The notes beneath the pieces are model-generated. The model was not told the DNA's origin and made no database searches. It saw only the letters and a program-made list of their open reading frames with translations. This document shows, piece after piece, positions 12,439 to 26,631 of a DNA stretch of 40,774 bases (position 1 is the stretch's first letter; each line of letters begins with the position of its first letter). The translations under genes were made by a program, and so were the position numbers. The stretch is from positions 1 through 40,774 of the forward strand of contig JBGQGY010000017.1 of the NCBI GenBank assembly GCA_041497675.1, read 5' to 3'. Source of the DNA: a bacterium (GTDB taxonomy: Bacteria > Sysuimicrobiota > Sysuimicrobiia > Sysuimicrobiales > Humicultoraceae).

Positions 12439-13020
12439 TTACTGCACTCTAAATCGTTTCCTCGCGATCTCGTGCAGGGTGGTCGACACGTTTGGATCCA
12501 CGATGTTGACTTTGACTTCATATTCCCCCGAAGCCTGCCCCGGAAGCACGAAGAGAAAGGCCGTGTCCTCAAACCCTCTTCTGCGGAGCCGAGCATTTTC
12601 CGAGGTCGCGATGGCCACGCCGCGCTCCCGCTCGACCTTGTGAAGCGTCACGTTGACGAGCCGCGGTCCGGGGATGTCGATGCGCTGCCACCGTCCGGCG
12701 ACGCCGATGCGCTCGCCGGGGTCAAGCCACTCTACCGCGGGCCGGACCGCACGGGGTGGATCGCCGGTTACTTTGACGATCTCCAGCGTCGCGCGAATGG
12801 TTCCGGGCGCCTTCGGTGATCGCTCGGGTAGACCTTCCTCCCACACGTGCCACCCGATGGCCAGCAGGCCGCCGGCGCCGAAGAGTAAGATACCCGTCCA
12901 GATCAGACCGGCGCCGGTCAGCGGTCCCCGCGTCTTCCGCCCAGCTGGGGTTCCTTGCTCTGTCCCTGTGATTGCCCGCCTCCAACGGTTCGCGTGGAAG
13001 GGCCACGGTATAGATAGCAT
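12439..13020 (-). CDS. Hypothetical single-pass membrane protein (start uncertain)
   Basis: One hydrophobic segment (LIWTGILLFGAGGLLAIGW) followed by a beta-rich domain; fills the gap between the lipoprotein and the tRNA promoter. Confidence 0.6.
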   Translation of the reverse strand: MLSIPWPFHANRWRRAITGTEQGTPAGRKTRGPLTGAGLIWTGILLFGAGGLLAIGWHVWEEGLPERSPKAPGTIRATLEIVKVTGDPPRAVRPAVEWLDPGERIGVAGRWQRIDIPGPRLVNVTLHKVERERGVAIATSENARLRRRGFEDTAFLFVLPGQASGEYEVKVNIVDPNVSTTLHEIARKRFRVQ

Positions 13021-14683
13021 ACCCAACGTTTCTCAAGCGTTTCTCGGTGGCGTTCGTGCGCGTTGACAGCGTCCCGACCCGGCGCCTAGAATGACTGTTG
13101 GCGGACTGTCCTTCCCATAATGGGAGCGTAGTGTAGCCTGGTTTAACACACCTGCCTGTCACGCAGGAGATCGCGGGTTCAAATCCCGTCGCTCCCGCCA
13201 ACTCGATCCCCACGCGCGGTGTGTTTCCTCCCTTTTCCTTGAGCAACTGATTGATTTCGTTCTCAGTCGGTGGCCGGCAGGCACCAGCCCTCCGGTACAG
13301 ACACGTCCCGCCCCAGCAGGTCACCAGGTCGAAGCCATCATGCCGGGGGGGGAGGGGTAAAGTCGACACCATGGTGTTGAATGTCGCCGCCAGCCTCTCG
13401 AAGTCGTCATCGTGCAGAACCAGAATGATCGGGACCTTGCGATGAAGGTACGTGTACCCTCCAGAGAGCGACCAGTGGAACCCGCGGATCGCGACCCCGC
13501 AGACCGTTGGGTCACGGCTGAGTTCCCGGAAAGCGATGAGGTTGCCCGACTCGCGCGACAACGGCGCCAGTGAGGGAGAACGGCCGGCAAAGTACGCGGA
13601 CGTGACAGCGAGAACAATCAAGCACGCCCCGACGAGCGCGCCTGGTGAGCGCGGTCGTCGCCACCAGGCGTTCAGTTCCGACGCCACCTCAGCCACGCTC
13701 GCCGCCGCGAGCGCAATCACGATCGGCAAAACAGGGTAGATGTAGCGGTATTCCTTGTGGGGAATCGCAGAATGGGTGAGCAGGATGGCCAATGCGACCC
13801 AACCCAACAATGGACTCCGACGTGCGCCCCACGCGGCAAGCGGGATCATCGGGCCCAGCTGCCAGGTTAGGATTAGCGCATACGTATACCACGGTGCCGC
13901 CAATCCAATGATCAGGCTCCTGCCCTCGACGATGTTGACCCAGAAGTAGCGAACATAGGACTGGAACGGGTACGACCATGTGATGGCATCGAGCAATCCG
14001 AAGGCGGCGACAGGCAGGACGATCCCCGCGATCATGGGGGCAAGCCTGTCTCTCCAATTCCTCCGACAGATGTACGCCGCGGCAAGAATCACCGCTGGGG
14101 TCAGGAGCGCCCGCAGCGCAAGAGCGAGCCCGAAGAAGAGCCCCGCCACAAACAGGCGATGCCGTTCCCGGATCGAGCTCCCATACACACCCAGGTACAG
14201 CCCCGGTAGGAAGAAATGAGCAGCCACGACCTCGTTCAGCGCCCTCGGAGCGTAGTAGACGAGTTCATACCAGATCGCGCAGGTCCCCGCAGCCACGACG
14301 GCCGCAATCGTCCCACTGGTTCGATAGCTCCACATGAACGCGAACCAGACCGTGCTCAGCGAAAGCAGAGACAGGACGACGGTGATGCCCAACAAGTAGC
14401 CGGCGGACCCTGCGCCGATCGAATCGGTCGCGCGCATCACGCCAGCCAGAAACGCAGGAAACACCCACGATCTGACCCCTTCGCGATACTCCCAGGTGAC
14501 CACGCCGTAGCCGTACGCCAGGCGGTGGGCAGCTTCGCGCGTTTGGAAGACTTCATCTGGATGATTGACGTTCGTGTGCCTAACGGCGAGACCTACGCGA
14601 AGCAGCAACGCGATGACAAAAATCGCCGTCAGCAGGAGAACAATCGAGGACCGCCACTTGGTTCTTCCTTCTTCCGTTTGCAT
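12722..14683 (-). CDS. GT-C glycosyltransferase, PIG-B/Alg9 (GT22)-like mannosyltransferase; plausible protein ends near 13228 but the frame has no stop until 12722
   Basis: HPDEVFQTREAAHRLAYGYGVVTWEY..GVRSW and HKEYRYIYP match the PIG-B-type loop motifs; many TM segments; Cys-containing C-terminal domain. Confidence 0.82.
   Translation of the reverse strand: MQTEEGRTKWRSSIVLLLTAIFVIALLLRVGLAVRHTNVNHPDEVFQTREAAHRLAYGYGVVTWEYREGVRSWVFPAFLAGVMRATDSIGAGSAGYLLGITVVLSLLSLSTVWFAFMWSYRTSGTIAAVVAAGTCAIWYELVYYAPRALNEVVAAHFFLPGLYLGVYGSSIRERHRLFVAGLFFGLALALRALLTPAVILAAAYICRRNWRDRLAPMIAGIVLPVAAFGLLDAITWSYPFQSYVRYFWVNIVEGRSLIIGLAAPWYTYALILTWQLGPMIPLAAWGARRSPLLGWVALAILLTHSAIPHKEYRYIYPVLPIVIALAAASVAEVASELNAWWRRPRSPGALVGACLIVLAVTSAYFAGRSPSLAPLSRESGNLIAFRELSRDPTVCGVAIRGFHWSLSGGYTYLHRKVPIILVLHDDDFERLAATFNTMVSTLPLPPRHDGFDLVTCWGGTCLYRRAGACRPPTENEINQLLKEKGGNTPRVGIELAGATGFEPAISCVTGRCVKPGYTTLPLWEGQSANSHSRRRVGTLSTRTNATEKRLRNVGYAIYTVALPREPLEAGNHRDRARNPSWAEDAGTADRRRSDLDGYLTLRRRRPAGHRVARVGGRSTRAITEGARNHSRDAGDRQSNRRSTPCGPARGRVA
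13063..13092 (+). promoter_or_regulatory. Sigma70-type promoter for tRNA-Asp
   Basis: TTGACA (13063-68), 18 bp spacer, TAGAAT (13087-92), about 30 bp upstream of the tRNA. Confidence 0.75.
13122..13200 (+). tRNA. tRNA-Asp (GTC)
   Basis: Cloverleaf: acceptor GGGAGCG/CGCTCCC, D stem GTGT/ACAC, anticodon arm CCTGC-CTGTCAC-GCAGG, T arm GCGGG-TTCAAAT-CCCGT, discriminator G and encoded CCA. Confidence 0.97.
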
Positions 14684-14746
14684 GTTGGCCCCCGCCTTTC
14701 CTCGTGACAGCAGCATCTTCCTTCGGGGTAAACCATTCTGACGAGG

Positions 14747-14761
14747 CTACCCGCCGAGTAG
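14747..14761. promoter_or_regulatory. Palindromic operator copy (CTACCC-GCC-GAGTAG) upstream of GT22-like gene
   Basis: One mismatch to CTACCC-N3-GGGTAG; a weaker copy CTTCCT-TCG-GGGTAA lies at 14717-14731. Confidence 0.55.
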
Positions 14762-14809
14762 TTTGCGAGTAGTGGGTCAAACGGAGAGCAGGAATGCGCC
14801 GCGAAACGC

Positions 14810-16216
14810 CTAGCACGATCTGGGCTTCAGAGTCTCTGGGACAACGAAATTCCGATACACCTCACAGTTGTGCATCGCGGATCCAAACACCCCAGGCGAT
14901 CCCTGGGGACGGGGGGTGCCGACGAGCACCGGATGAACGTAGATGAAGAAGATCAACGATCCGAGGGCGACCGCCGTCGCGACGGCGACCCGCCTCGGTG
15001 GATGAGGAATCATGGTAATCGCGAAGCCGAGCGCAAGACACAGAAATGGCACGGCCGGGAGAAAGTGGAACAGATATAGCCCACGAACGTGTGTGAGCAC
15101 AAACCACGGCGCGTAGGAACACACAAACCCAATGATGATGACGGCTTCGGCAGAGCGAAGATCGCGGGAGCGGATCAGGCGCGCCGCAGCATACGCCAGG
15201 GCCGGGATCGACAGCCACCAGACAAACGGGTTGCCGAGCGCGACGATTGCCGACGCGGTTGATTCTCCAATGGCGAGGAAGTAGATCACTGGCGACTTTC
15301 CGAGAATCCAGAACCAGGGCGGAGATTGCGCCATGTCACTCCTGGACGCGACGGAGTGGAAACCGATCATCGAGACTTGCTGACGACCCACGGCGCGCAG
15401 CCACGAGCCGTCGGCCCAGGGACTCGCGAGCAGGTTCCCGGACACGGTGCCGGCGTAGCTCGCCAGATAGAGCGCGACCGGCAGCAGCACGAGCCACAGG
15501 CCGATTGACGGGCCTTCCTCGCGCACCGTTCGCAGAAGGACCGGCCCTCGGCCATTGGACCGACGGGCAGACAGTCCCCAGATGATCGTGAGGAGCAATA
15601 CGGCGACGAGCGCGAAGGCCCCGGGCCACTTGGAGGCCATCGCCGCCCCTGCCGCGCCGCCCGCGGCGATTCGCCACGGGTGGCTGAATACGCTCGCGGC
15701 ACCGCCTGACGAAGTCCTGGTCGGTCGGTCGCGGTCGTAGACGCAGAAAAGAAGGGTCGCGACGCTAAAGAGCGTGACAAACACGTCGAGCATGGCAACG
15801 CGCGAGTGGACGAAGTGCAAGAAGTCGATGGCGAGGAGTCCCGCGGCGAGTGATGCACCGGCGGTCGAACGCAGGATGCGCCTAGCGAGGAGGTACACGA
15901 TCGCGACAGTCGCCGTTCCGGCGAGGACCGAGGCTGCGCGCCATCCGAGCGGGTTGTACCCGAACGCGGCGATCCCCAGGGCGATGAGCCATTTGGCCAG
16001 CGGCGGATGGACCACGACGTGAATCGCGCCACAGAGAGAGACGGAATGCAGAAGGTACCAGCAGGCTTCCCGTGCGTAATAGTACTCGTCGTAAACGAAA
16101 CTCGCGGGATCGCCAAGCAGGGCCAGCCGGAGCGCCCCCGCGACCAGGGTGATAGCCGCGATGGCGATCCAGTCGACCGGCGCCCAGGTACGAGCCGTCT
16201 TCTGGTTGGCGGACAC
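14810..16216 (-). CDS. Protein O-mannosyltransferase-like GT-C (PMT/GT39)
   Basis: Loop-1 acidic motif FVYDEYYY, VHPPLAKWLIA, GWR, SRVAMLD.F, KW, GNP..WW, Y.PW, HFLP; multi-TM. Start GTG 16216 is tentative (ORF track starts at 16282). Confidence 0.85.
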   Translation of the reverse strand: MSANQKTARTWAPVDWIAIAAITLVAGALRLALLGDPASFVYDEYYYAREACWYLLHSVSLCGAIHVVVHPPLAKWLIALGIAAFGYNPLGWRAASVLAGTATVAIVYLLARRILRSTAGASLAAGLLAIDFLHFVHSRVAMLDVFVTLFSVATLLFCVYDRDRPTRTSSGGAASVFSHPWRIAAGGAAGAAMASKWPGAFALVAVLLLTIIWGLSARRSNGRGPVLLRTVREEGPSIGLWLVLLPVALYLASYAGTVSGNLLASPWADGSWLRAVGRQQVSMIGFHSVASRSDMAQSPPWFWILGKSPVIYFLAIGESTASAIVALGNPFVWWLSIPALAYAAARLIRSRDLRSAEAVIIIGFVCSYAPWFVLTHVRGLYLFHFLPAVPFLCLALGFAITMIPHPPRRVAVATAVALGSLIFFIYVHPVLVGTPRPQGSPGVFGSAMHNCEVYRNFVVPETLKPRSC

Positions 16217-16251
16217 TCTGCTATCTTTGGCATCAGTCCTCTCGTCGTTCC

Positions 16252-16270
16252 TCCTACCCTGAGGGTAGGA
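16252..16270. promoter_or_regulatory. Perfect 9-1-9 palindrome TCCTACCCT-G-AGGGTAGGA (putative operator)
   Basis: Read directly; lies just upstream of the Pmt-like gene. Confidence 0.7.
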
Positions 16271-16312
16271 TTCCAACTGCAACAGGCCGTCTCAGCCGCA
16301 AGGGTCCAGGGA

Positions 16313-16327
16313 CTACCCTTCGGGTAG
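16313..16327. promoter_or_regulatory. Palindromic operator copy CTACCC-TTC-GGGTAG
   Basis: Perfect 6-3-6 copy 59 bp from the previous one, in the divergent pmt/luxR intergenic region. Confidence 0.68.
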
Positions 16328-16624
16328 GAGGATTCATCTGTCTTGCGTGTAATGTAAGGCTTTGCTTTAACCGGGAGGCGGAACCCGAATTTTACTGGAT
16401 CCTGGTATCCCCGGATCCAGACTTTAGGAGGACTCACAGGGCAAAAGTCTACCAGCCCCCAGAGGCTTAGAGGCTTATGATGATGACACCGGCCCCGTGT
16501 GGGAAGGTGTTAGTGTCGTCTCTGAGGGGTTTCGGGCCGAGGAACGAAGTCGCGCTACCGCGGCCTCACATCGCGCCATATCCGTCGCGAAGCTGTTGCG
16601 CCTCCCCCAATGCCGGGGGTTGAC

Positions 16625-17035
16625 ATGGCTCAAGTCGTGCCGACGGATGTTCTCGAGCGGATAGCGCATTCGCTGTCGGCGTCCAATGGGGCGCTTTCGA
16701 AGGAAGACGGGGCCGAGTTCGGTCGAGCGCTGACGGACCTGGCGGAGAGGATCGAGTTCGCTGCCGAGATTCTCAGGCAGTTGATCGAGTTGATTAATCC
16801 CCAGGTCGTTCTCCAGGACCTGCATCTCACGCCGCGGGAGCTCGAGATGCTCACGCACCTGGCCGAAGGTTCCTCCAATGTCGAAATCGCCGGGAAGTGC
16901 TGGGTCTCAGAGAATACGGTGAAATTCCACCTGAAGAACGTCTTCCGGAAGTTGCATGTGCGAGACCGCGGTCAGGCGATGATGCTTGCACGCGCGATCA
17001 ATCGGAAACTGCATCATTCTCCCGTAGAGAAGTGA
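16625..17035 (+). CDS. LuxR/GerE-type HTH transcriptional regulator with short non-receiver N-terminus
   Basis: LTPRELEMLTHLAEGSSNVEIAGKCWVSENTVKFHLKNVFRKLHVRDR is a canonical LuxR C-terminal HTH; start 16625 or 16610. Confidence 0.9.
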   Translation: MAQVVPTDVLERIAHSLSASNGALSKEDGAEFGRALTDLAERIEFAAEILRQLIELINPQVVLQDLHLTPRELEMLTHLAEGSSNVEIAGKCWVSENTVKFHLKNVFRKLHVRDRGQAMMLARAINRKLHHSPVEK

Positions 17036-17042
17036 AGACGTA

Positions 17043-17345
17043 GTGCCCGTACTCTGGCGGCTGTTCTGGGCGCTGGCCGCCCTCCAGATCGTCGACTTGG
17101 CCTCCACGTACCTCATCATCGCCCGGGGCGGCCGAGAGGGAAACATCTTCATGCGGGACGTGATTCACACCCCACTCGCGCCCGTCGTCAAGGGGTTCGC
17201 GCTCCTCTTCCTCGCCGGACTCATTGTCAGCAGTCTCCAGCGGGGCCGGCCGGCCCCCCACCGCCTCACCGCGATCACGTGGCTGATCCTGGGAATCTAC
17301 GTTGTGACAGCCTTGAACAACGCCAGCGTCCTGATTTTTCCCTGA
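17043..17345 (+). CDS. Small membrane protein, DUF5658-like
   Basis: Three hydrophobic helices; D..STY.....GG.E.N..M and K motifs typical of that family (from memory of the family, not searched). Confidence 0.65.
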   Translation: MPVLWRLFWALAALQIVDLASTYLIIARGGREGNIFMRDVIHTPLAPVVKGFALLFLAGLIVSSLQRGRPAPHRLTAITWLILGIYVVTALNNASVLIFP

Positions 17346-17360
17346 CTTCCATCCCGACGC

Positions 17361-17379
17361 TCCTACCCTCAAGGTAGGT
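17361..17379. promoter_or_regulatory. Palindromic operator copy upstream of flp pilin (TCCTACCCTCAAGGTAGGT)
   Basis: 17/19 identical to the reverse complement of 16252-16270; a half-site AGGTAG follows at 17400-17405. Confidence 0.7.
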
Positions 17380-17505
17380 TACACGGAATCCACCCGCTCA
17401 GGTAGTAGTATCCCGCAGCCTGTCGCGGCTAGCGTGGAACGTGGACGCGACCGCGAGCGCGAGGCGGCACGCGTTTACAAACAGCTCCTTGAGAGGGGGA
17501 TGGTT

Positions 17506-17712
17506 ATGCTTTGGTACCTGCGCGCTTGGCTGGCTGAGACACTCGATGATGAGAGGGGCGCCGCGGCCACCGAGTACGTGCTCCTGATTCTCGGCGTCGT
17601 CCTCTTCATGATCGTCGCGGCATTCGGGTTGCGCGACGTGCTTGCAGCTGCCGTCACCAGTATCAGCACCTGGATCGGTAGTGTCACGCCGCCTGCAGTT
17701 CCAGGACCTTAG
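17506..17712 (+). CDS. flp: Flp family type IVb pilin
   Basis: Leader ..DDERG|AAATEY (G at -1, E+5, Y+6), hydrophobic helix, short S/T/P-rich tail; SD GAGAGGGG; start 17506 or 17500. Confidence 0.9.
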   Translation: MLWYLRAWLAETLDDERGAAATEYVLLILGVVLFMIVAAFGLRDVLAAAVTSISTWIGSVTPPAVPGP

Positions 17713-17755
17713 ATAGTTTGGCCGAGGCGGTAGCTCAGTTGGAAACGGTTGTGTG

Positions 17756-17796
17756 CGACGCGGGCCACCCCGTGTTCATTCGGGTGGCCCGCGTTG
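17756..17796 (+). terminator. Strong stem-loop between flp and tadE (attenuator or mRNA stabiliser; no U-tract)
   Basis: ACGCGGGCCACCC (17758-70) / GGGTGGCCCGCGT (17782-94) form a perfect 13-bp stem with an 11-nt loop. Confidence 0.6.
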
Positions 17797-17812
17797 GTCA
17801 TGGGACGGTCGC

Positions 17813-18244
17813 ATGAAGCAGCGCGGTCAGGCCACCGTCGAGCTGGTCCTGATGATGCCGCTCCTTCTGGCATTGCTATTTCTTCTCTTTGAGTTCGGGC
17901 GCGTCTTCGGCTCGTGGATAATCATTACCAACTCGTCGCGTGAGGGGGCCAGATATGCCGTGGTGCTGGCCCAGAATTCCACGTCGAACCCCGCCATCCA
18001 GGGGCGCGTGCAGGCGACCGCCCAGTTTCTTGACGTGGACGCGGTCCCCTGTACGGGTTCTTACAGCTCGTGCATTCAGATCAATCGGACACCCTCGACG
18101 TGTGTGGAATGCACCGTCACGGTCACTGTCAGATACCGGGTGTTTACGTTGATGCCTATTACGGGCGATATCCCGTTTCTTGGGCCCATCAATTACCCGG
18201 GGTTTATGGAAGTCGTCGGAGTTTCGACAATGCGGGCCGAATAG
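17813..18244 (+). CDS. tadE: TadE-like minor pilin
   Basis: MKQRG|QATVELVLMMPLLL...EFGR....ITNSSREGARYA. Confidence 0.88.
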   Translation: MKQRGQATVELVLMMPLLLALLFLLFEFGRVFGSWIIITNSSREGARYAVVLAQNSTSNPAIQGRVQATAQFLDVDAVPCTGSYSSCIQINRTPSTCVECTVTVTVRYRVFTLMPITGDIPFLGPINYPGFMEVVGVSTMRAE

Positions 18245-18257
18245 GAGGATCCCAGCT

Positions 18258-19157
18258 ATGAAACGCAGGTGGGTCATACCCGTCGTGTCGGCCGTCCTGG
18301 CGCTCGTCACCACTGTGGTGGTCGTCGGTTACCTGCAGACCCTCAGACGGCAGGTCACCGTGGTGGCGCCGATCAAGACCGAGGCCGTCGTCTTTGCGAG
18401 GACCGCGATCGCGGAGCGCCGGATCGTAGGTGCCACCGCCCTCGAGATCCGGCAGATCCCGGCAGAGGCGGTGCACCCGCAGGCTGCGCGGCGGATCGAA
18501 GACGTCGCCGGACGGGTCGCCGTCGCTCCCATTTTCGCCGACGAACAGGTGCTCGCGCCGAAACTGGCGCCGGTCGGTGTAAATGTTGGTCTGGCATTTG
18601 TCCTCCCCAAGGACAAGCGGGCGATGACCATTGCGGTTAATGAAGTCGTCGGAGTGGCCGGGTTTGTCTTTCCTGGAGATCGCGTGGACGTCGTGGCGAC
18701 GGTCCACAACGACAAGATCAACCTGACGAAGATCGTGCTTCAGGACGTCGAGGTCATGGCGATCGCGCAGAAGGTCGAGCAGAAGCCGGGAGAGGAGCCC
18801 CGCGTCACCACTTCGGCGACGCTGGCGCTCACGCCTCAGCAGACCGAGGCGCTGGCCGAGATCGATAACAACGGACGCGTGCGCCTGGCCCTCAGGCCCC
18901 ATGGGGTGGACGACAGGGTGCAGACTGCCGGGCAAACCATCGAGACGGCCATTGGACGTACCTCGACGGCCGTCGCTGCCGCCCCGGCTACGAGCGTGCG
19001 TACAGCCTCTGCTACCGCACGTACGCGGGCTCGGCGCGAGGCTGCAACCGTGGCGGCCGTACCGCCGCCGACCCTCAAGCCGACCGCCGTGCACAGTGTC
19101 GAGCTCTGGAGGGCGACTGCGAAATCGACGGTGCAGTTCGAGGAGCCCCGTCCATGA
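18258..19157 (+). CDS. cpaB: Flp pilus assembly protein CpaB/RcpC
   Basis: N-terminal TM, SAF-like region, KRAMTIAVNEVVGVAGFVFPGDRVDVV, LQDVEVMAI, TLALTP, LALRP; SD AGGAGG. Confidence 0.92.
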   Translation: MKRRWVIPVVSAVLALVTTVVVVGYLQTLRRQVTVVAPIKTEAVVFARTAIAERRIVGATALEIRQIPAEAVHPQAARRIEDVAGRVAVAPIFADEQVLAPKLAPVGVNVGLAFVLPKDKRAMTIAVNEVVGVAGFVFPGDRVDVVATVHNDKINLTKIVLQDVEVMAIAQKVEQKPGEEPRVTTSATLALTPQQTEALAEIDNNGRVRLALRPHGVDDRVQTAGQTIETAIGRTSTAVAAAPATSVRTASATARTRARREAATVAAVPPPTLKPTAVHSVELWRATAKSTVQFEEPRP

Positions 19158-20281
19158 CGAAACCAGCGGATCGCCAGCAAGAACGTGGGATGGCGGCGGT
19201 ATTCACCGTCCTTGGGTTTCTGGCGGTGACGCTTGTGGTCGGGATGTCGACCGATTTCGGCATTCTCATGCGGTATCGGCGCGCCATGCAGAACGCGTGC
19301 GACTCCGGGGTGCTTGCGGGAGGACTGAACCTCAGGTCCAGTCCGTCGACGGCGCCGGCGACCGCTCAGCGATATGCTGAGGACGACATGCGGCAAAACA
19401 ACATCGCCTGGAGTTCGGTGGATGCCACGACACTCGATCTCATGCCGACGCGGCCCGGGCTTGAAGGCGTCCGAGTCGAGGTCCATTCGAACGTTCCAAT
19501 GTTCTTCTTGCGGCTGGTCCGAGACACGGTACCGGTCGCCGTGGCGTGCACCGCCCGACTGGCGCCGGTCATCCTGACTCGGGGACTGGTTCCACTGGGC
19601 CTCAACTACGATGCCTGGCGCGCCTACAGCGGCACCAGCGGCTGCCTGCCGGTGATTCAGGGCGGCGTTCCGCTTTCGGCCCGAACGCCTCCGTGCGACT
19701 CGTTCACGATGACGTTGGACGTCAGCGCCAGGAGCAACCCGTGGGGGTCCGGGAACACGGGCATGGTTGCCATGCAGGCCCCCGGAGGTACAGGAGACTG
19801 CTTCGCCGACTGCCCTGTCGGCGCATCGTTTTGGAGGGACACGTTTATCCAGGGCTCCCCACAGCAGTATTGCTTTGATGAGGGCCAGACCGCTGCGGTC
19901 ACGGACTTCACGCTTGAGGGCCGATCGTGCGCGAACGTCAGGACGAGACCTGGAACCGTCAGCGGCCCGGTCAGGACCGCCGTTGACGCTCGGTGCGACA
20001 GCACGAACCCGCTGGATCGCATCGTCGTCATCGTGCTCCTGAACCCGGCGTATGCGACAGCCGGCAGCGGCTCCTACACCACGGAGATCTGGGGATTCGC
20101 GGCCTACGAATTGGATTGTTCCCAAAGGCCCACGGCCGGGGCTGGTAACGTGTCGATCCACGGGGGATTCGTCTCGTTCGTCTCCATGCAGGCCACCGGA
20201 ACCCACACGACGTTCGATACCGGTATCTACACGGTGGTGTTGTGCGAGGATAGTTCACCACAGAATACTTGTAGGTCGTAG
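19154..20281 (+). CDS. TadG-like pseudopilin / putative tip adhesin (Cys-rich)
   Basis: ERG cleavage-like site plus hydrophobic helix, D.G......R..Q.A.D...LAG Tad motif; 12 Cys; ATGA overlap with cpaB. Confidence 0.8.
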   Translation: MTKPADRQQERGMAAVFTVLGFLAVTLVVGMSTDFGILMRYRRAMQNACDSGVLAGGLNLRSSPSTAPATAQRYAEDDMRQNNIAWSSVDATTLDLMPTRPGLEGVRVEVHSNVPMFFLRLVRDTVPVAVACTARLAPVILTRGLVPLGLNYDAWRAYSGTSGCLPVIQGGVPLSARTPPCDSFTMTLDVSARSNPWGSGNTGMVAMQAPGGTGDCFADCPVGASFWRDTFIQGSPQQYCFDEGQTAAVTDFTLEGRSCANVRTRPGTVSGPVRTAVDARCDSTNPLDRIVVIVLLNPAYATAGSGSYTTEIWGFAAYELDCSQRPTAGAGNVSIHGGFVSFVSMQATGTHTTFDTGIYTVVLCEDSSPQNTCRS

Positions 20282-20290
20282 GAGGCCCAG

Positions 20291-21430
20291 GTGGCCCAGT
20301 TCGTGCGGGTTGTGGTCGCGACGCCCAACGAGGCGTCGCGGAATCTCATCCTCAGGGTCGTGAATCAGCACCAAGCGGCCCGGATCGTCGCCGAAGCCGA
20401 TACCGACGATCGACTCATGGATGTCGTGGCGTATCGGCGTCCCCAAGTGGTGTTCGTGTCCCCCGACCTGGCGGACATGCGGGGATTCGAGGTTGCCGAC
20501 AGACTGTCGCGGCGATATCCCGGTCTCTACATCGCGATGGTGTCACCGCGCAATGGCAACGACGAGCTTCGCCGGGCGATGAAGGCGGGAGCCCGGGAAT
20601 GCCTCGTTGAGCCCATCGGCGAGGACGCTGTGCTGCGCGTCATCGATGAGGCGAAAGACCTTGGGACGTCAATCGCCGAGCGGCGGGGAACCGTTCTGGG
20701 TATCATGTCCAGCAAAGGTGGCGTCGGCAAGAGCACCGTCGCCGTTAACCTGGCGATTGCGCTGAAGCAGATCAACAGCGCCACGCGTGTCGCCCTGGTG
20801 GACGGAGATCTGTACTTCGGCGACATCGCCGTGCTCCTAAACGCCAAGCCTGAGCGGACTATTCACGAGTTGAACACCGCCCTCGATGCGGAGATTGCGG
20901 ACCGGTTCCTCTATCAACACCCTACGGGCATCGAAATCCTGGCTGCGCCCCCGCAGACGGAACAGGCCGACGAGATCTCGCCGGACCGGTTCCGCATGAT
21001 CCTCGGCATCCTGCAGAGCCTCTACGACGTCGTCCTCGTGGACGCCACGGTGTCCGCCTTTGACACTATGCTGGCGACCCTCGACGTGGCGGATCAGATC
21101 GTCTTGTTGTCCACCCTCGATGTCGTGTGCCTGAAGGATATCGGCCAGATGCTGCGGATGCTCTCGAAACTTCGATTCCCGGCCCACAACGTCATGATTG
21201 CCGGCAACCGGTTCGACGAACGCGTCTCGCTCAGCCCGAAGGACGCCGAGCGGGCGCTGGGGATGCCCTTTAGCACGGTGCTGCCCCGGGACGACCGGAA
21301 CATCACGGCGGCCAATCGCGGGATTCCCCTGATTTTGAGTGAACCCGGCGCGCCGTTCGTCCAGAAAATCGTCGCATTCGCAAAGACGATCAACCTGCAG
21401 ACTGGGAGGGCCGAGCGTGTCTCTGCGTAG
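20291..21430 (+). CDS. cpaE: CpaE/TadZ pilus localisation protein (pseudo-receiver plus MinD-like ATPase)
   Basis: RRAMKAGARE, deviant Walker A KGGVGKST, LVDGDL.FGD, AANRGIP. Confidence 0.88.
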   Translation: MAQFVRVVVATPNEASRNLILRVVNQHQAARIVAEADTDDRLMDVVAYRRPQVVFVSPDLADMRGFEVADRLSRRYPGLYIAMVSPRNGNDELRRAMKAGARECLVEPIGEDAVLRVIDEAKDLGTSIAERRGTVLGIMSSKGGVGKSTVAVNLAIALKQINSATRVALVDGDLYFGDIAVLLNAKPERTIHELNTALDAEIADRFLYQHPTGIEILAAPPQTEQADEISPDRFRMILGILQSLYDVVLVDATVSAFDTMLATLDVADQIVLLSTLDVVCLKDIGQMLRMLSKLRFPAHNVMIAGNRFDERVSLSPKDAERALGMPFSTVLPRDDRNITAANRGIPLILSEPGAPFVQKIVAFAKTINLQTGRAERVSA

Positions 21431-22715
21431 ACGCCTCGAGGAGATCACGGAAACCGTTGGGTTCTGGGCCGACCCATATCAAAGCCTGAAAAACACGGTG
21501 CACCGGCGGTTGATCGAGGAGATGGGGCGGCGAGGGGCAGCCGGCACGGGTCGTGAGGAGATCGAGAGAGAAGTGGCCCGCATCCTCGACCGCGAGAACG
21601 ATCTGCTGACGCGCGAAGACCGAACCCGGCTGATCAAGGATATCGTCAATGAGGCCCTCGGGTACGGGCCGATCGAGCCCCTCATCCAGGACCCAACGGT
21701 CACTGAAGTGATGGTGAACGGTGCCAATCAGGTGTTCGTCGAACAGGGCGGGAAGATCTACCCCACGGATGTGCGGTTTCGAGACGATCAACACGTGATG
21801 CGGATCGTCGAGAAGATCGTGTCTGAGGTGGGCCGGCGCATCGATGAGAGTCAGCCGTACGTCGACGCCCGCCTGCCGGACGGCTCGCGGGTGAACGCCA
21901 TCATTCCCCCGCTGGCGCTGAACGGACCGTGCCTGACCATTAGGAAGTTCTCGCGGGAACCCTTTACCGACGCGGATCTGATCCGGTTCGGGACACTGAC
22001 CGACGAGGTCAGGGACCTGCTCGATGCGTGTGTGCGGGCCAAGCTGAATACCTTGATCTCCGGCGGGACGGGATCCGGTAAGACCACATTGCTGAACGTG
22101 GTGAGCGCGTTCATCCCGGCGAGTGAGCGGATCCTCACGATCGAGGACGCCGCCGAACTGCAACTGAAGCAGCCACACTGGGTGCGCCTTGAAACCCGCC
22201 CTCCGAACATCGAGGGCCGGGGACAGGTGACCCAGCGTGACCTGGTCCGGAACGCGCTGCGCATGCGCCCCGACCGGATCCTCGTGGGTGAGGTCCGCGG
22301 CGGGGAAGCGCTGGACATGCTGCAGGCGATGAATACCGGGCACGAAGGAAGCCTGACGACCGTCCACGCCAACACGGCTCGGGACGCGTTGGCCCGGGTC
22401 GAAACCATGGTGTTGATGGCCGGGATCGATCTGCCCACGCGGGCGATCCGGGAGCAGATGGCCTCTGCGTTCCATGTCCTGATCCACATGGCGCGGTTTA
22501 GCGATGGTACCCGGAAGATCGCCAAGATCGCTGAGGTCACGGGGATGGAGGGCGACGTCATTACCATGCAGGACATTGTCGTCTTCACACCGTCAGGCAT
22601 CTCTCCCGACGGGCAGGTCCAGGGTCGGCAAGTGTTCACCGGGCTTCGCCCAAGGTTCTACGATCGGATGAAGGCGATGGGGATCGAGCTGGCGCTTTCC
22701 ATCTTCCTTCGGTGA
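21417..22715 (+). CDS. cpaF: CpaF/TadA pilus assembly ATPase
   Basis: GYGPIEPL..DPTVTEVMVNG, VDARLPDGSRVN, GGTGSGKTT, TIEDAAEL, LRMRPDRILVGEVRG.EA, MNTGH; GTG start after GGGAGGG. Confidence 0.95.
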   Translation: MSLRRRLEEITETVGFWADPYQSLKNTVHRRLIEEMGRRGAAGTGREEIEREVARILDRENDLLTREDRTRLIKDIVNEALGYGPIEPLIQDPTVTEVMVNGANQVFVEQGGKIYPTDVRFRDDQHVMRIVEKIVSEVGRRIDESQPYVDARLPDGSRVNAIIPPLALNGPCLTIRKFSREPFTDADLIRFGTLTDEVRDLLDACVRAKLNTLISGGTGSGKTTLLNVVSAFIPASERILTIEDAAELQLKQPHWVRLETRPPNIEGRGQVTQRDLVRNALRMRPDRILVGEVRGGEALDMLQAMNTGHEGSLTTVHANTARDALARVETMVLMAGIDLPTRAIREQMASAFHVLIHMARFSDGTRKIAKIAEVTGMEGDVITMQDIVVFTPSGISPDGQVQGRQVFTGLRPRFYDRMKAMGIELALSIFLR

Positions 22716-22725
22716 GGGCGCGACA

Positions 22726-23664
22726 ATGTGGGCGCTGACTCTCGTCGTGTTCGCCACGTGCTCGTGGCTCTTCTACCTGCTCGTGGCCAGGCTCATGGGG
22801 CCGCGACTGGCGGTCGCAGACCGGCTGGCGACTGTCGGCGCGGCGTCGCAGCCGCCGGTCCAGGCACCCTTTCGGTGGAGCAGCATGCCGGCAGCAGACC
22901 GCATCATGGGGCGCCTCGACTTCTCGCGATCCCTGGAGTATCTGCTCGACGAGGCGGATCTCCCGATGAAACCGTTCGAATTTGTTCTTCTGCTCATCGT
23001 CTGCGCACTGGGCCTGACCGCGGCCGGCCTGGTCGCGGGACGCGGGACGGCCATCGCGGTGCTCATGGGCATGCTCGGGTTCCTCGCGCCCATCGTGTGG
23101 GTGCGCCTGCGGCGTCTGGGCAGGCGGGACGCGTTCAACCGTCAGATTCCAGACGCCCTTCAGGCGATCGGCAACTCGCTGCGGGCGGGTTATGGATTTG
23201 GTCAGGGGATGGGAGTCGTGGCAAAGGACCTGCCGCGCCCCATTTCTGCGGAGTTTGCTCGGGCGCTTCGCGAGATGAACCTCGGGATGACGGTCGAGGA
23301 CGTCTTGCGGGATATGACACGCCGCATGCAGAGCGTGGACTTCGAGCTCGCGGTCTCGGGCATCCTTATCAACCGTCAGGTCGGCGGCAATCTGGCCGAG
23401 CTCCTCGATCACATCACCAACACAATCCGGGAGCGCGTGAAGCTGCAGGCGTTTATCCGGGTGCTGACGGCGGAGCAGCGGCTGTCGGCCTTGGTCATCA
23501 TGGCCGTGCCGCCGGTGCTGTTCGTCATTCTCTTCGTCGCCTGGCGGGAGTACATGAAGTATATCCTCATTACGCGCATCGGCCTGGCGTTGCTGGCGGT
23601 TGCCCTGGTGATGCAGTTGGTCGGGATCTACTTCATTCGGCGCATTGTTGATATCGAGGTCTAG
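22726..23664 (+). CDS. tadB: TadB inner-membrane platform protein (T2SSF family)
   Basis: QIPDAL..IGNSLRAGY, PISAEF, QVGGNLAELL, IRER, LTAEQRLS. Confidence 0.9.
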   Translation: MWALTLVVFATCSWLFYLLVARLMGPRLAVADRLATVGAASQPPVQAPFRWSSMPAADRIMGRLDFSRSLEYLLDEADLPMKPFEFVLLLIVCALGLTAAGLVAGRGTAIAVLMGMLGFLAPIVWVRLRRLGRRDAFNRQIPDALQAIGNSLRAGYGFGQGMGVVAKDLPRPISAEFARALREMNLGMTVEDVLRDMTRRMQSVDFELAVSGILINRQVGGNLAELLDHITNTIRERVKLQAFIRVLTAEQRLSALVIMAVPPVLFVILFVAWREYMKYILITRIGLALLAVALVMQLVGIYFIRRIVDIEV

Positions 23665-23673
23665 GAGACCAAC

Positions 23674-24633
23674 GTGGAGCCTGCGCTGATCGGACTGCTG
23701 GTGTTTACCACGATCTTCCTGGGGGGCATGGCGCTGCTCAGACGCGCCCCCGAACAGGAGGCGGTTGGGGCCAGGCTGCTGGAGATCGAGCACCAGCGGT
23801 CTCCCCGGGCCATGCTGCTCACGGTGCCCTATCACCGGCGCGTCCTTCTCCCGGTCCTCAAATCCATCGTCGGCGCCGCGGCCAACCTCCTGCCTCCGAA
23901 TTCGATCGGAGAGGCGCAGAAGCGCCTCGTCATGGCCGGCCGGCGCACCGCCAACCCCGTGTTGTGGATTCTCCGCAAATGGGCCCAGGCCGGCGTGGCG
24001 GGGGCGCTTGTCTACCTCGCCGCGGGGCACTTCCGTTTGCCCGCTTTGACCCAGATCCTCGTGGCGCTCGGTGCGGGTGGGTGGGTGTATCTGTGGCCGG
24101 AGGTGCAGGTCCGGAGCGCGATTCTGGAGCGGCAGAACAAGATCGTCAAGGAACTGCCGGAGACCCTGGACCTGCTCACCATCTCGGTGGAGGCCGGACT
24201 CGGGCTCGATCAGGCGCTGGAGACCGTGACGGCGAAGCGCGCGGGGCCGCTCTCCGACGAAATCCGGGCCTACCTGGAGGAGGTCAGGCTGGGCCGCGAC
24301 CGCCAGGAAGCCCTGAGGGCCATCGGGAGCCGCACCGGCGTCGAGGACCTCATCTCCTTGGCCGCGACCCTGACCCAGGCGATGGAGTTCGGGGTGAGCA
24401 TTGGGCTCGTCCTGCGCATCCAGGCGGACGCGGTACGCACGCGCCGGCGCCAGCGGATCGAAGAGCATGCTATGAAAGCCCCGGTCAAGATGTTGTTCCC
24501 GCTGATCTTCCTGATCCTACCGGCACTGTTCGTCGTCGTCGCGGGGCCCGGGTTGATCAGGGCCTACGAGGAGTTCGTCAAACCCACGGGGCCGTCGCAA
24601 TTTAGGCCTCCGGCACAGCAAATTCGTCGATGA
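23674..24633 (+). CDS. tadC: TadC inner-membrane platform protein
   Basis: ELPETLDLLTISVEAGLGLDQAL, LR.QA...R.RRRQRIEE.AMKAPVKMLFPL. Confidence 0.92.
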   Translation: MEPALIGLLVFTTIFLGGMALLRRAPEQEAVGARLLEIEHQRSPRAMLLTVPYHRRVLLPVLKSIVGAAANLLPPNSIGEAQKRLVMAGRRTANPVLWILRKWAQAGVAGALVYLAAGHFRLPALTQILVALGAGGWVYLWPEVQVRSAILERQNKIVKELPETLDLLTISVEAGLGLDQALETVTAKRAGPLSDEIRAYLEEVRLGRDRQEALRAIGSRTGVEDLISLAATLTQAMEFGVSIGLVLRIQADAVRTRRRQRIEEHAMKAPVKMLFPLIFLILPALFVVVAGPGLIRAYEEFVKPTGPSQFRPPAQQIRR

Positions 24634-24671
24634 GTCGACATCACAGTTCCCTTGGAGGAGGCTCGACAGCC

Positions 24672-26171
24672 ATGCGCTCCATAACGGCGGCCCTTCTCAT
24701 CAGCTTCATGATCATCGTCATCGCTCCGAGTGCGCACGCCGACGAGACGGTGATGATTCAGGTCAATCATGGGATGCTGCTGAAGGTCAGCAATGTCGAG
24801 CGAGTCGTCGTCGCAGCGCCGGATATTGCCGACGTGAACATCATCACACGTAGCCAGTTGATGCTCGTCGCCAAGAAGGTGGGCGAAACGACGATCAGCG
24901 TGTGGGATGCCAGAGGCTATACTGCCTATCGGGTGGTCATTGCCGGCGCTCCCGCGACCGACATTATCAAGGCCCTGGGCGAGGTCTTGCGGGAGCCGAG
25001 CGTGGTCGTCAAGGTTGTGGGCGACGCGATTGTGCTCGAAGGGAGCGTGAAGACCAGCGTGGACAAGGCCCGAGCCGAGAGCATCGCGTCCGCGTTTGGT
25101 CGAAAAGTCATCAACGTGCTGAGGGTTGAGCAGGTGACCCCGCCGCCGCCCTCGACGACGCAGGTCTTGGAAGCGCAGGTGCTGGACGCGCTGAAGGGCC
25201 TGCCGGTGGTCATCAAAGTCATCCGGAACTCTTCCAATGAAGATACGATTCTTATCGAAGGAACAGTAGCCAACCAAGCCGAGTTGACCCGACTCGAGAC
25301 GATTGTCAAGGCCCTCGTGAAGAACGCCGTGTTGCTCGTTCGTGTTCGGGACCCCCGCCAGATCCGGGTCGATGCCACGTTTGTGGAGATCGACCGGCAG
25401 GCCCTACAGCAGATGGGCGTCGAGTGGGGGGGAGGGAGTCCGGCGACTACGCCCGCTCCTGGTGCCCCTGTTCTTGCACCCTCCATCACCGATCCGTTCG
25501 CGTTCCACTTCGGCTTCTTCGATCCGAGCAATCCGTTCACTCCCCTACAGGTCTTGGTGGCCCGGTTGCGCCTGCTGGAGTCGCGTGGCGTGGCCAGGGT
25601 ACTGTCCAACCCGCGCCTGGTGGTGTTGGAGGGCCGGCCCGGCAAGCTGGTGGTCGGCGGCGAGCTCCCGGTTCCGATCGTTGGCGCCGATCGCACGGTC
25701 ACCGTCCAGTTCAAGGAATTCGGCATCCGGCTCGAATTCTGCGTGAATTCGATCCTGCGGAAGCAGAACGACCAGCTCGACTGCGTGCGGGGCCAGGAGT
25801 TCGGCACCGGTGACGGCGTCACCATGGACCTGCGCACCGAGGTGAGCAGCCTCGACTTTGCCAACGCAATCGTCGCGGCGGGCTTTCTCATCCCCACGAT
25901 CAAGAAGCGTGAAGTGCAGACGATGATCATCATGCGCCCGGGCGAGTTCCTGGTGCTGGGCGGCCTGATCCAACGCGAGGTCAGCCAGAATGTTTCCAGG
26001 ATTCCTCTCCTCGGCGATCTTCCCATTCTCGGCGCCCTGTTTCGCAGCACCAGGTTCCAACGCGGGGAAACGGAACTCGTGATCTTCGTGTCGCCGAGCG
26101 TTGTGGCGCCGACCAGAGAGCAGCCGGCGGTCCCTGCCGAACCATCGCCGGTACCGTCGCCAGCGCCGTAG
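24672..26171 (+). CDS. cpaC: CpaC/RcpA-type outer-membrane secretin with BON-like domains
   Basis: Signal peptide (AHA-D), PDIADV..GETT N-domain, VGGELPVP, FKEFGI.L, LGGLI, IPLLGDLPILGALFRS..FQ..ETELVIFVSP. Confidence 0.92.
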   Translation: MRSITAALLISFMIIVIAPSAHADETVMIQVNHGMLLKVSNVERVVVAAPDIADVNIITRSQLMLVAKKVGETTISVWDARGYTAYRVVIAGAPATDIIKALGEVLREPSVVVKVVGDAIVLEGSVKTSVDKARAESIASAFGRKVINVLRVEQVTPPPPSTTQVLEAQVLDALKGLPVVIKVIRNSSNEDTILIEGTVANQAELTRLETIVKALVKNAVLLVRVRDPRQIRVDATFVEIDRQALQQMGVEWGGGSPATTPAPGAPVLAPSITDPFAFHFGFFDPSNPFTPLQVLVARLRLLESRGVARVLSNPRLVVLEGRPGKLVVGGELPVPIVGADRTVTVQFKEFGIRLEFCVNSILRKQNDQLDCVRGQEFGTGDGVTMDLRTEVSSLDFANAIVAAGFLIPTIKKREVQTMIIMRPGEFLVLGGLIQREVSQNVSRIPLLGDLPILGALFRSTRFQRGETELVIFVSPSVVAPTREQPAVPAEPSPVPSPAP

Positions 26172-26196
26172 CGGCCACAGCCACAGGGGGCAGTCG

Positions 26197-26631
26197 ATGT
26201 ACGTCGTGAACAGGACGCGCAGCACCTATCTAGGGGTGGATATTCGACTGGCGAATTCGTTCCGGTCACGCCTCATGGGACTGCAGGCCTACCGGGAGAT
26301 TCCATTTGGCGACGGCGTCTGGCTGGTGCCGTGCAACTCGATCGTGACGTTTCGGATGCGGTTTGCTATTGACGCGGTCTTTCTGGATAGGGACGGTCGC
26401 GTCGTGCGCGTCGTGGAGAACATTTCGCCTGGGAAAGTCGTGTGGCCCATTCGCAGGGCGCACTCGGTCCTCGAGTTGCCCGCGGGCGTGGTGCGCAGCA
26501 GCGAGACTCGGGACGGAGACATGATCGAGTGCATCGATGACGTCGTGCGCCCGGTCCGGTCGCGCGACGGGCAAGCCGGGACGTCCCGTGCGTCGACTGA
26601 GAAGGAGGCGTCGCCGCTCGGCCGGGATTGA
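26197..26631 (+). CDS. DUF192 family protein (commonly Tad-associated)
   Basis: A.SF..RL.GL, PCNSI.TF.MRFAID.VFLD, SVLELPAG. Confidence 0.85.
   Translation: MYVVNRTRSTYLGVDIRLANSFRSRLMGLQAYREIPFGDGVWLVPCNSIVTFRMRFAIDAVFLDRDGRVVRVVENISPGKVVWPIRRAHSVLELPAGVVRSSETRDGDMIECIDDVVRPVRSRDGQAGTSRASTEKEASPLGRD

Follow-up and report, generated by a model that had tools for sequence, protein, structure and literature searches.

Which protein, if any, reads a short palindrome that recurs around a pilus locus of an uncultured bacterial phylum? The palindrome, CTACCC-N3-GGGTAG, lies repeatedly between genes for two glycosyltransferases, a small LuxR-type regulator and an Flp-type pilin in a 40,774-nucleotide stretch of DNA (the window; contig JBGQGY010000017.1, assembly GCA_041497675.1) from a member of the Sysuimicrobiota. 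A sequence-only reading had taken it to define a local regulon of both glycosyltransferases and the pilin, controlled by the LuxR protein. Comparison across 94 genomes of the phylum, this one (3.97 Mb) included, and with metagenome loci indicates that the palindromes are almost certainly parts of an operator array of the six-base half-site CTACCC, and that the adjacent LuxR, which is the best candidate binder, very probably binds these sites. Taken as a whole, the best explanation, which we consider likely, is that half-site arrays serve as operators of the local LuxR, which would activate flp-tad from about -44.5. The geometry of the arrays, their conservation, their fixed distance to a -10-like hexamer and their co-occurrence with LuxR are direct observations.

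According to Pfam annotation, the GT22-like and Pmt-like genes lie on the minus strand and are followed on the plus strand by LuxR, DUF5658, the Flp pilin and the Tad operon. The regulator and the elements of the flp promoter are the following (palindromes carry no strand):

16625-17035, plus strand: 136-residue LuxR-type regulator (Pfam GerE; AlphaFold model; 71-sequence alignment)
17363-17377: auxiliary 6-3-6 palindrome further upstream in the flp promoter, centred at about -72 (motif scan)
17379-17384, plus strand: degenerate direct-repeat half-site, 11 bp ahead of the proximal palindrome (period 11 in relatives)
17390-17405: promoter-proximal 6-4-6 palindrome, predicted activator site, centre about -44.5 (matrix and -10 scoring)
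17430-17435, plus strand: predicted -10 hexamer (TANNNT), 24 bp past the palindrome (conserved spacing)
17500-17712, plus strand: Flp-type pilin (prepilin G-x4-E-Y motif in the sequence; homologues)

The palindromes and the half-site array

A motif scan recovered the four main copies at 14747, 16254, 16313 and 17363 that the sequence-only reading had listed and, in agreement with it, no further copy in the window. With up to two mismatches allowed, these 4 matches compare with 0.86 expected, and 1 of 100 shuffles reached 4. The copy at 16254 does lie inside a perfect 19-bp palindrome (16252-16270), which consists of perfect 9-bp arms around a single central base. The whole genome contains just two perfect N3 copies, both within 14747-17377, and four of its nine copies with at most one mismatch fall into the same interval (rough clustering P about 1e-6). 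All copies are intergenic, as had been proposed, if Pmt starts at GTG 16216, and tblastn matches of homologues begin at residues 3-9 of that start.

The N3 palindrome is real, but the functional unit appears to be an array of half-sites, the promoter-proximal pair of which is separated by 4 bp in 16 and by 5 bp in 11 of 27 arrays and by 3 bp in none, in a tally that permitted gaps of 3-5 only; a scan of the locus for a gap-2 (7-2-7-like) site found none. The copy at 14747-14761 is likewise present but belongs to a larger array of three half-sites (14747-14772). Two weaker gene-proximal partners had also been suggested. The one at 14717-14731 could not be upheld, as one half only scores, with 4.1 bits. 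The one before flp (17391-17405) is a genuine site noted in the wrong register: it is a 6-4-6 palindrome at 17390-17405 and represents the conserved promoter-proximal site.

The flp promoter and the Tad operon

Upstream of flp, the conserved unit consists of a half-site, a second half-site 11 bp further on, a gap of 4 or 5 bp, an inverted half-site and, after 23-24 bp, the hexamer TANNNT. This geometry was found in all ten flp promoters from 8 related genomes, five of these promoters being known before the rule was written (the G023 promoter lies beyond its contig), and in 6/6 distinct metagenome promoters, one of which (L073/L074) was judged by eye because the search expression missed one half-site variant; the background was 15 of 2987. 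Its counterpart in the window spans 17379-17405, and the -10 box occupies 17430-17435; the supposedly weak proximal partner is therefore the main site and the 17363 copy an upstream auxiliary. Counterparts of the latter at the same position have N3 in G004 and G019 and N4 in G029 and L062. The period-11 direct repeat occurs in 9 of the 10 flp promoters from relatives, and the letters of 17379-17384 recur in a promoter of G029. When array and -10 box were scored jointly with a binding matrix that had been built from the sites of relatives only and was then applied to this genome, this flp promoter ranked first genome-wide.

If transcription starts 7 bp after the -10 box, near 17442, the proximal pair is centred at -44.5, which for this predicted start corresponds to a class II-type position (operator at about -41 to -45, abutting a poor -35 element). 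No consensus sigma-70 promoter was found in the flp promoter region, which fits an activator-dependent promoter. On a quick LuxR tree with weak support, the N4 and N5 spacer classes did not each form one clade, and we therefore make no claim of co-evolution. Among the relatives, genomes of family f4 (L054, L055, L026, L047, L258) have several flp genes, some arranged in tandem and others at loci of their own, where each is accompanied by an N5 array, and tadG of G038 has its own divergent promoter with a site (L050:1885).

The genes downstream of luxR are:

17043-17345, plus strand: DUF5658 small membrane protein (Pfam; accompanies the locus in most relatives)
17813-26631, plus strand: Tad operon encoding TadE, CpaB/RcpC, TadG, REC-TadZ, TadA, TadB-like, TadC, RcpA secretin and DUF192 (Pfam)

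Homologues of flp with 50-74% identity stand first in every related tad cluster, and a Pfam search of the Flp-type pilin gave no match. The TadB-like open reading frame (ORF) is also without Pfam match and was named by its position and weak similarity to TadC. Pfam annotation of 17500-26631 identified no prepilin peptidase (TadV/CpaA) in the Tad cluster. DUF5658 and DUF192 genes accompany the cluster in most relatives. A tRNA-Ala predicted by ARAGORN at 22776-22865 within the tadB-like gene is probably false, since Rfam gave no match.

The LuxR-type regulator and its distribution

The sole Pfam domain of the 136-residue protein is a C-terminal, four-helix GerE-type helix-turn-helix (HTH; PF00196, E 7e-19, 67.6 bits against a cut-off of 23.5). 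In the AlphaFold model, a short helix and one of 32 residues precede the HTH helices at residues 70-130, and the N-terminus, made up of two helices, is free of strands. The HTH superposes on those of VpsT, LiaR, VraR and NarL with root-mean-square deviations of 0.8-1.5 Å, and both sequence and fold searches matched the HTH only. No NarL/FixJ receiver domain was detected (no Response_reg match in Pfam; below all NCBIfam cut-offs), nor, by Pfam, a quorum-sensing autoinducer-binding domain, and a MalT/AlkS-like architecture of ATPase and TPR domains is not present, the MalT model covering LuxR residues 42-126 only. The protein is thus neither a response regulator nor a quorum-sensing LuxR nor a MalT-type protein. 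An ESM Atlas search with the N-terminal 66 residues gave no usable match, and a hidden Markov model of the N-terminal part found no second copy in the genome.

The family comprises 114 proteins, of which 71 were aligned, and has an invariant W-x2-[EQ]NTVKF-H-x-KN helix. Its homologues are labelled Armatimonadota by their source; the genus of one orthologue (L139) is assigned to Ca. Sysuimicrobiota at NCBI. Orthologues of LuxR occur in 10 of the 94 phylum genomes and orthologous CpaB in the same 10, a co-occurrence that is inflated by the physical linkage of luxR to tad and by the non-independence of relatives. Two further genomes contain distant CpaB only, and one of them, with a recognisable flp, has no site there (best score 5.3 bits). 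A strict three-half-site pattern that made no demand for a TANNNT box matched 19 times, with 18 matches in six of the ten LuxR-positive genomes and 1 in the other 84, whereas the reversed-pattern control gave 2 and 11, respectively. Within genus g23, 13 of the strict matches fell into three LuxR-positive genomes and none into three negative ones. A looser version of the pattern, applied to five genomes, gave 3 matches against 3 in the control. Of 11 strict matches outside the training set (one previously seen), 9 are followed by TANNNT at 23-24 bp, a tenth has the box after a downstream partner, and one has none. The genes behind these sites encode an extra Flp pilin, an AMIN-domain protein, a TPR protein (its gene followed by those for Wzy_C, a sugar transferase and a GT4 protein), a GHMP kinase, a regulator of the NarL type and several small proteins. 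In addition, an MshEN-PilB gene in G029 is preceded by a similar site, and genes of glycosylation are repeatedly seen behind or next to such sites in relatives.

The sites are thus kept in orthologous loci across related genomes and metagenome loci, as the proposed regulon demanded. Its local character was borne out for this genome, because the genome-wide matrix scan found no outstanding distant promoter of the flp type, but does not extend to some relatives, where distant members exist. Second LuxR copies were seen in relatives (L046/L141 near 7569; L073:8537-9130; L024), one behind GAF-like sequence, one as a divergent pair and one as a tandem pair. Conservation of the array, co-occurrence of LuxR with Tad and the link between recognition helix and site described below together make it likely that the adjacent LuxR activates flp-tad.

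The recognition helix and its probable site

This genome encodes 15 proteins with a LuxR-type HTH, and one of them, a NarL-type regulator encoded on contig C26, shares the K-F-H-x-K-N helix with the small LuxR; a perfect N4 site adjoins its gene. Two tests that do not depend on pili connect helix and site. Among orthologues of the C26 regulator, an adjacent N4 palindrome was found in 13 of 18, whereas regulators with a different helix had it in 0 of 8. The association extends to distant taxa: in 139 loci (L077-L138, L142-L218) that were retrieved by the helix peptide TVKFH[LM]K alone, many of them mutually related, an N4 palindrome of at least 16 bits was present within 1.5 kb in 48, and every other gap from 0 to 10 was seen at most once. 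Frames of at least 700 residues occur in 73 of these loci, and 7 of 9 large proteins tested were MalT-like. A general helix-to-operator rule across phyla is possible on this basis. In the distant loci, CTACCC-N4-GGGTAG often lies 22 bp ahead of a -10-like box. The C26 kinase-regulator pair itself (G000:C26:15140) has a conserved N4 palindrome before the next operon, which by eye encodes a cupredoxin and an NrfD-type redox complex.

The shared helix raises the alternative that another LuxR/NarL-type protein, such as the C26 two-component regulator, is the main binder of the sites at the pilus locus, and the N4 sites beside its orthologues speak in favour of it. We nevertheless regard this as improbable, since a C26 orthologue occurs in only 3 of 10 Tad-positive genomes and in 15 of 84 others, and since the three-half-site array tracks the small LuxR. 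Cross-reading of the sites by the C26 regulator in this genome is possible.

Sites upstream of pmt and luxR

The divergent genes pmt and luxR enclose both perfect N3 copies:

14810-16216, minus strand: Pmt-like GT-C glycosyltransferase (Pfam PMT, PMT_4TMC, PMT_2)
16254-16268: perfect 6-3-6 palindrome, 37 bp ahead of the pmt start (motif scan; counterparts in relatives)
16313-16327: perfect 6-3-6 palindrome facing luxR, likely autoregulatory (motif scan)

A site on the pmt side is present in all four pmt genes linked to the locus, against 0 of 18 other homologues, and its counterparts have N3 in G042 and L061 and N4 in G009, where alone the site shows activator geometry. In a Pmt tree, the linked genes fall into one clade (support 0.88) together with a siteless G019 gene. 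Control of pmt by LuxR seems reasonably likely. The Pmt-like protein scored 141.6 bits against the NCBIfam Pmt equivalog NF058602, far below the cut-off of 800, and is therefore to be named GT-C/Pmt-like only.

Upstream of luxR, 23 distinct loci were surveyed after exclusion of two with less than 150 bp of upstream DNA and of three duplicates. Ten of them contain a palindrome that scores 13 bits or more no further than 500 bp away; 0.1% of random 250-bp windows score 13 bits. Cyclic di-GMP (c-di-GMP) riboswitches may offer a further input in some relatives: class c-di-GMP-II precedes luxR in G009 and G023, and c-di-GMP-I precedes the second luxR copy of G019, whereas an Rfam search of window positions 14600-17900 for c-di-GMP aptamers (E up to 1) found none. 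The riboswitch coordinates are L021:9311-9400, L022:10315-10401, L024:5598-5673 and L026:13312-13391, and in G038 a CAP-domain gene close to luxR is led by a c-di-GMP-I-GGC riboswitch. In the window, a terminator-like hairpin with a T-run at 16340-16370, between the 16313 site and luxR, could attenuate luxR transcripts.

The array beside the GT22 gene

The remaining site lies at the other end of the locus:

12722-14716, minus strand: GT22/Alg9-like membrane glycosyltransferase ORF, start at 14716 or 14686 (Pfam PF03901, E 7e-30)
13122-13200, plus strand: tRNA-Asp (ARAGORN, Rfam; blastn similarity to two close relatives ends at the tRNA 3' end)
14747-14772, minus strand: array of three half-sites (two direct, then one inverted; N3), located after the Pmt stop and ahead of the GT22 start (matrix score)

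With the matrix built from relatives only, the array has the top three-half-site score of the genome (27.9 bits against 17.7 for the next); it is oriented towards GT22 and represents a strong predicted binding site. Whether it controls GT22 is evenly balanced in our estimate, and only a little less probable is that the array is a relic of the control of a lost gene, GT22 having arrived later beside tRNA-Asp and standing outside the regulon, while LuxR still reads the sites of flp and luxR. Just one of the 94 phylum genomes contains GT22; among 120 listed homologues, which are 49-58% identical and 443-561 residues long, the four named by taxon are Acidobacteriota by source name. Homology of the ORF ends near 13215, and 8 of 8 inspected homologues end just past the matching motif, whereas here the stop codon was lost at the tRNA junction and about 170 further codons (12722-13215) run antisense through tRNA-Asp. 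In two close relatives a luxR paralogue occupies the GT22 slot, and in the same-genus genome G001 a homologous array lies beside a PEMT/ICMT methyltransferase gene, with no GT22. No TANNNT box was found at 23-24 bp after the array. All of this favours a relic; against it, the array is undecayed, the best in the genome and of flp-type orientation, and L065 repeats the layout, with a PMT_2 gene, an N3 array and a second gene that by eye is GT-C-like. A relic at GT22 is compatible with LuxR control of the pilus genes. Of the regulon proposed for both glycosyltransferases and the pilin, the parts concerning flp and the Pmt-like gene are hence supported by conserved sites, but the link to GT22 is weaker than claimed.

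The similarity to close relatives breaks in an insertion-like manner at the 3' end of tRNA-Asp. Relatives, too, have tRNA genes in or close to the locus (tRNA-Asp in G004, L023:360-438; tRNA-Arg in G009, L021:5382-5457, and G023, L022:14647-14724); together with a patchy distribution over 10 of 94 genomes, this is a hint of a mobile island.

Alternative explanations and model

A fixed distance of the right half-site from a -10-like box would also be expected if GGGTAG were a promoter element of an alternative (SigB/SigF-like) sigma factor instead of a half-site. We rejected this explanation, which we consider very improbable, because the hexamer is present on either strand, recurs as a direct repeat with an 11-bp period and tracks a LuxR helix across phyla; moreover, 23-24 bp exceeds the spacer between -35 and -10 elements. 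The palindromes could alternatively be repetitive extragenic palindromic (REP) elements or RNA hairpins, and a tandem of N5 and N4 palindromes between converging genes on contig C76 (G000:C76:11422-11455) may indeed be a terminator hairpin and not an operator. The scarcity of copies in the genome argues for a local motif, as the sequence-only reading had supposed, and neither GTAG-type REP/REPIN elements nor the associated RAYT (Y1) transposase are in evidence: no Y1 transposase (PF01797) was found in the genome, whereas a control search detected PF01797 in 6 of 14 genomes. Hairpins were rejected because changes in the arms are mostly uncompensated (of 23 deviating positions, 19 break pairing, 3 give G-T and 1 is compensated), and the flp sites lie upstream of the predicted start. 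The chance that REP elements or hairpins account for the palindromes is close to negligible.

Several observations weigh against LuxR arrays as operators of the whole locus. None of the four N3 copies is followed by TANNNT at 23-24 bp, four of the ten LuxR-positive genomes, this one among them, give no match to the strict pattern, and a strong site upstream of luxR is lacking in 13 of the 23 loci. In L063 and L065, where a more distant PMT_2 gene is divergent from luxR, the gap between the two genes contains no site (best 5.7 and 3.9 bits). In G001, array and pmt are present, luxR and cpaB are missing from the assembly, and the contig ends inside pmt. Linkage of luxR to tad makes their co-occurrence partly one event, with kin counted as if independent; the C26 regulator, with an identical helix and a perfect N4 site of its own, is encoded in the same genome; and the rarity of GT22 and its lost stop codon were described above.

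With these points taken into account, activation of flp-tad by LuxR remains the explanation that we prefer. A LuxR dimer would bind the inverted pair just upstream of a poor -35 element and recruit RNA polymerase, as NarL does at -43.5/-44.5, while extra protomers may settle on the next half-site, a helical turn further upstream, and on the N3 palindrome around -72. Dimerisation of LuxR probably runs through the long N-terminal helix, which may also permit spacings from N3 to N5. Both perfect N3 copies, which share the gap between pmt and luxR, would likely serve autoregulation and control of pmt. Because LuxR has no sensor domain, its output is probably set by the amount of protein. As far as the glycosyltransferases are concerned, the motif would indicate shared control and not glycosylation of the pilus by these enzymes. 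In its most ambitious form, which goes well beyond these points and which we consider rather unlikely, the model would make the sensor-less LuxR, so far seen in Sysuimicrobiota only, the master switch of a pilus and glycosylation programme: its amount would be set by autoregulation and, in some species, by c-di-GMP riboswitches, a coiled-coil tether would let it polymerise over N3 to N5 arrays, and Pmt-like, Wzy_C, GT22 and GT2 genes would be exchanged for one another downstream of its operators, so that the sugar coat on the Flp pilus varies.

The analysis provides a promoter-level model of pilus control in an uncultured phylum, with a named protein, exact sites, a predicted start and candidate targets. 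The regulator stands out by lacking a sensing domain and by being riboswitch-led in some relatives, and the varied glycosylation genes under the same operators are candidates for pilin-glycosylation enzymes. The helix-to-operator link spans distant taxa and is usable for regulon prediction; if it is true as a rule, operators of many LuxR-type proteins so far unstudied, in various phyla, could be predicted from the pairing of TVKFH[LM]K with CTACCC-N4-GGGTAG.

Comparison with known systems

A search of literature listings found no description of this system or motif. The closest mechanistic parallel is NarL, with which the LuxR protein shares the type of HTH, an inverted repeat upstream of -35 (predicted centres -44.5 and -72 here) and two lysines four residues apart in the recognition helix, which we take to be equivalent to NarL Lys188 and Lys192. 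The LuxR described here differs in lacking receiver and kinase, in its 6-(3 to 5)-6 sites with a direct repeat in place of the NarL 7-2-7 site and in its targets, which are pilus and glycosylation genes. In E. coli, a NarL dimer binds an inverted repeat centred at -43.5 in the yeaR promoter and at -44.5 in that of ogt, which has another site at -77.5, as described in an excerpt of PMC10853779.

The match of the HTH in both sequence and fold is best with Vibrio cholerae VpsT/CsgD. The receiver-like domain of VpsT binds c-di-GMP. The similarity is limited to the HTH, the LuxR protein having no receiver-like domain; VpsT and CsgD are regulators of biofilm and adhesion tied to c-di-GMP (title of PDB 3klo). 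AlkS of Pseudomonas putida GPo1 is, according to excerpts of PMC8784404 and PMC12740625, a LuxR-family activator with an inverted repeat upstream of -35 and positive autoregulation. The likeness of AlkS and MalT-like proteins to the present LuxR is one of family, predicted site position and predicted autoregulation, and with about 900 residues including ATPase and sensor domains they differ from a protein of 136 residues.

Among regulators of pili, Pseudomonas aeruginosa PprB is of the NarL/LuxR type. One regulator acting on pilus genes and on its own promoter, as predicted here, is the feature that the two have in common: PprB is a direct activator of type IVb pilus genes that also binds its own promoter (excerpt of PMC6821963). 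It differs from LuxR in belonging to a two-component system, in its site, GGCTAATAC, and in its other targets, CupE and Bap (same excerpt). In Pectobacterium, the two-component system ECA0785-0786 lies beside flp/tad and is required for its expression (excerpt of PMC3767616); it resembles the present locus in that the regulator is encoded next to the flp/tad cluster, but is of the OmpR type and comes with a kinase. An activator of Tad pili encoded within the locus is hence a known design, and the regulon predicted here, which is well supported, builds on that design.

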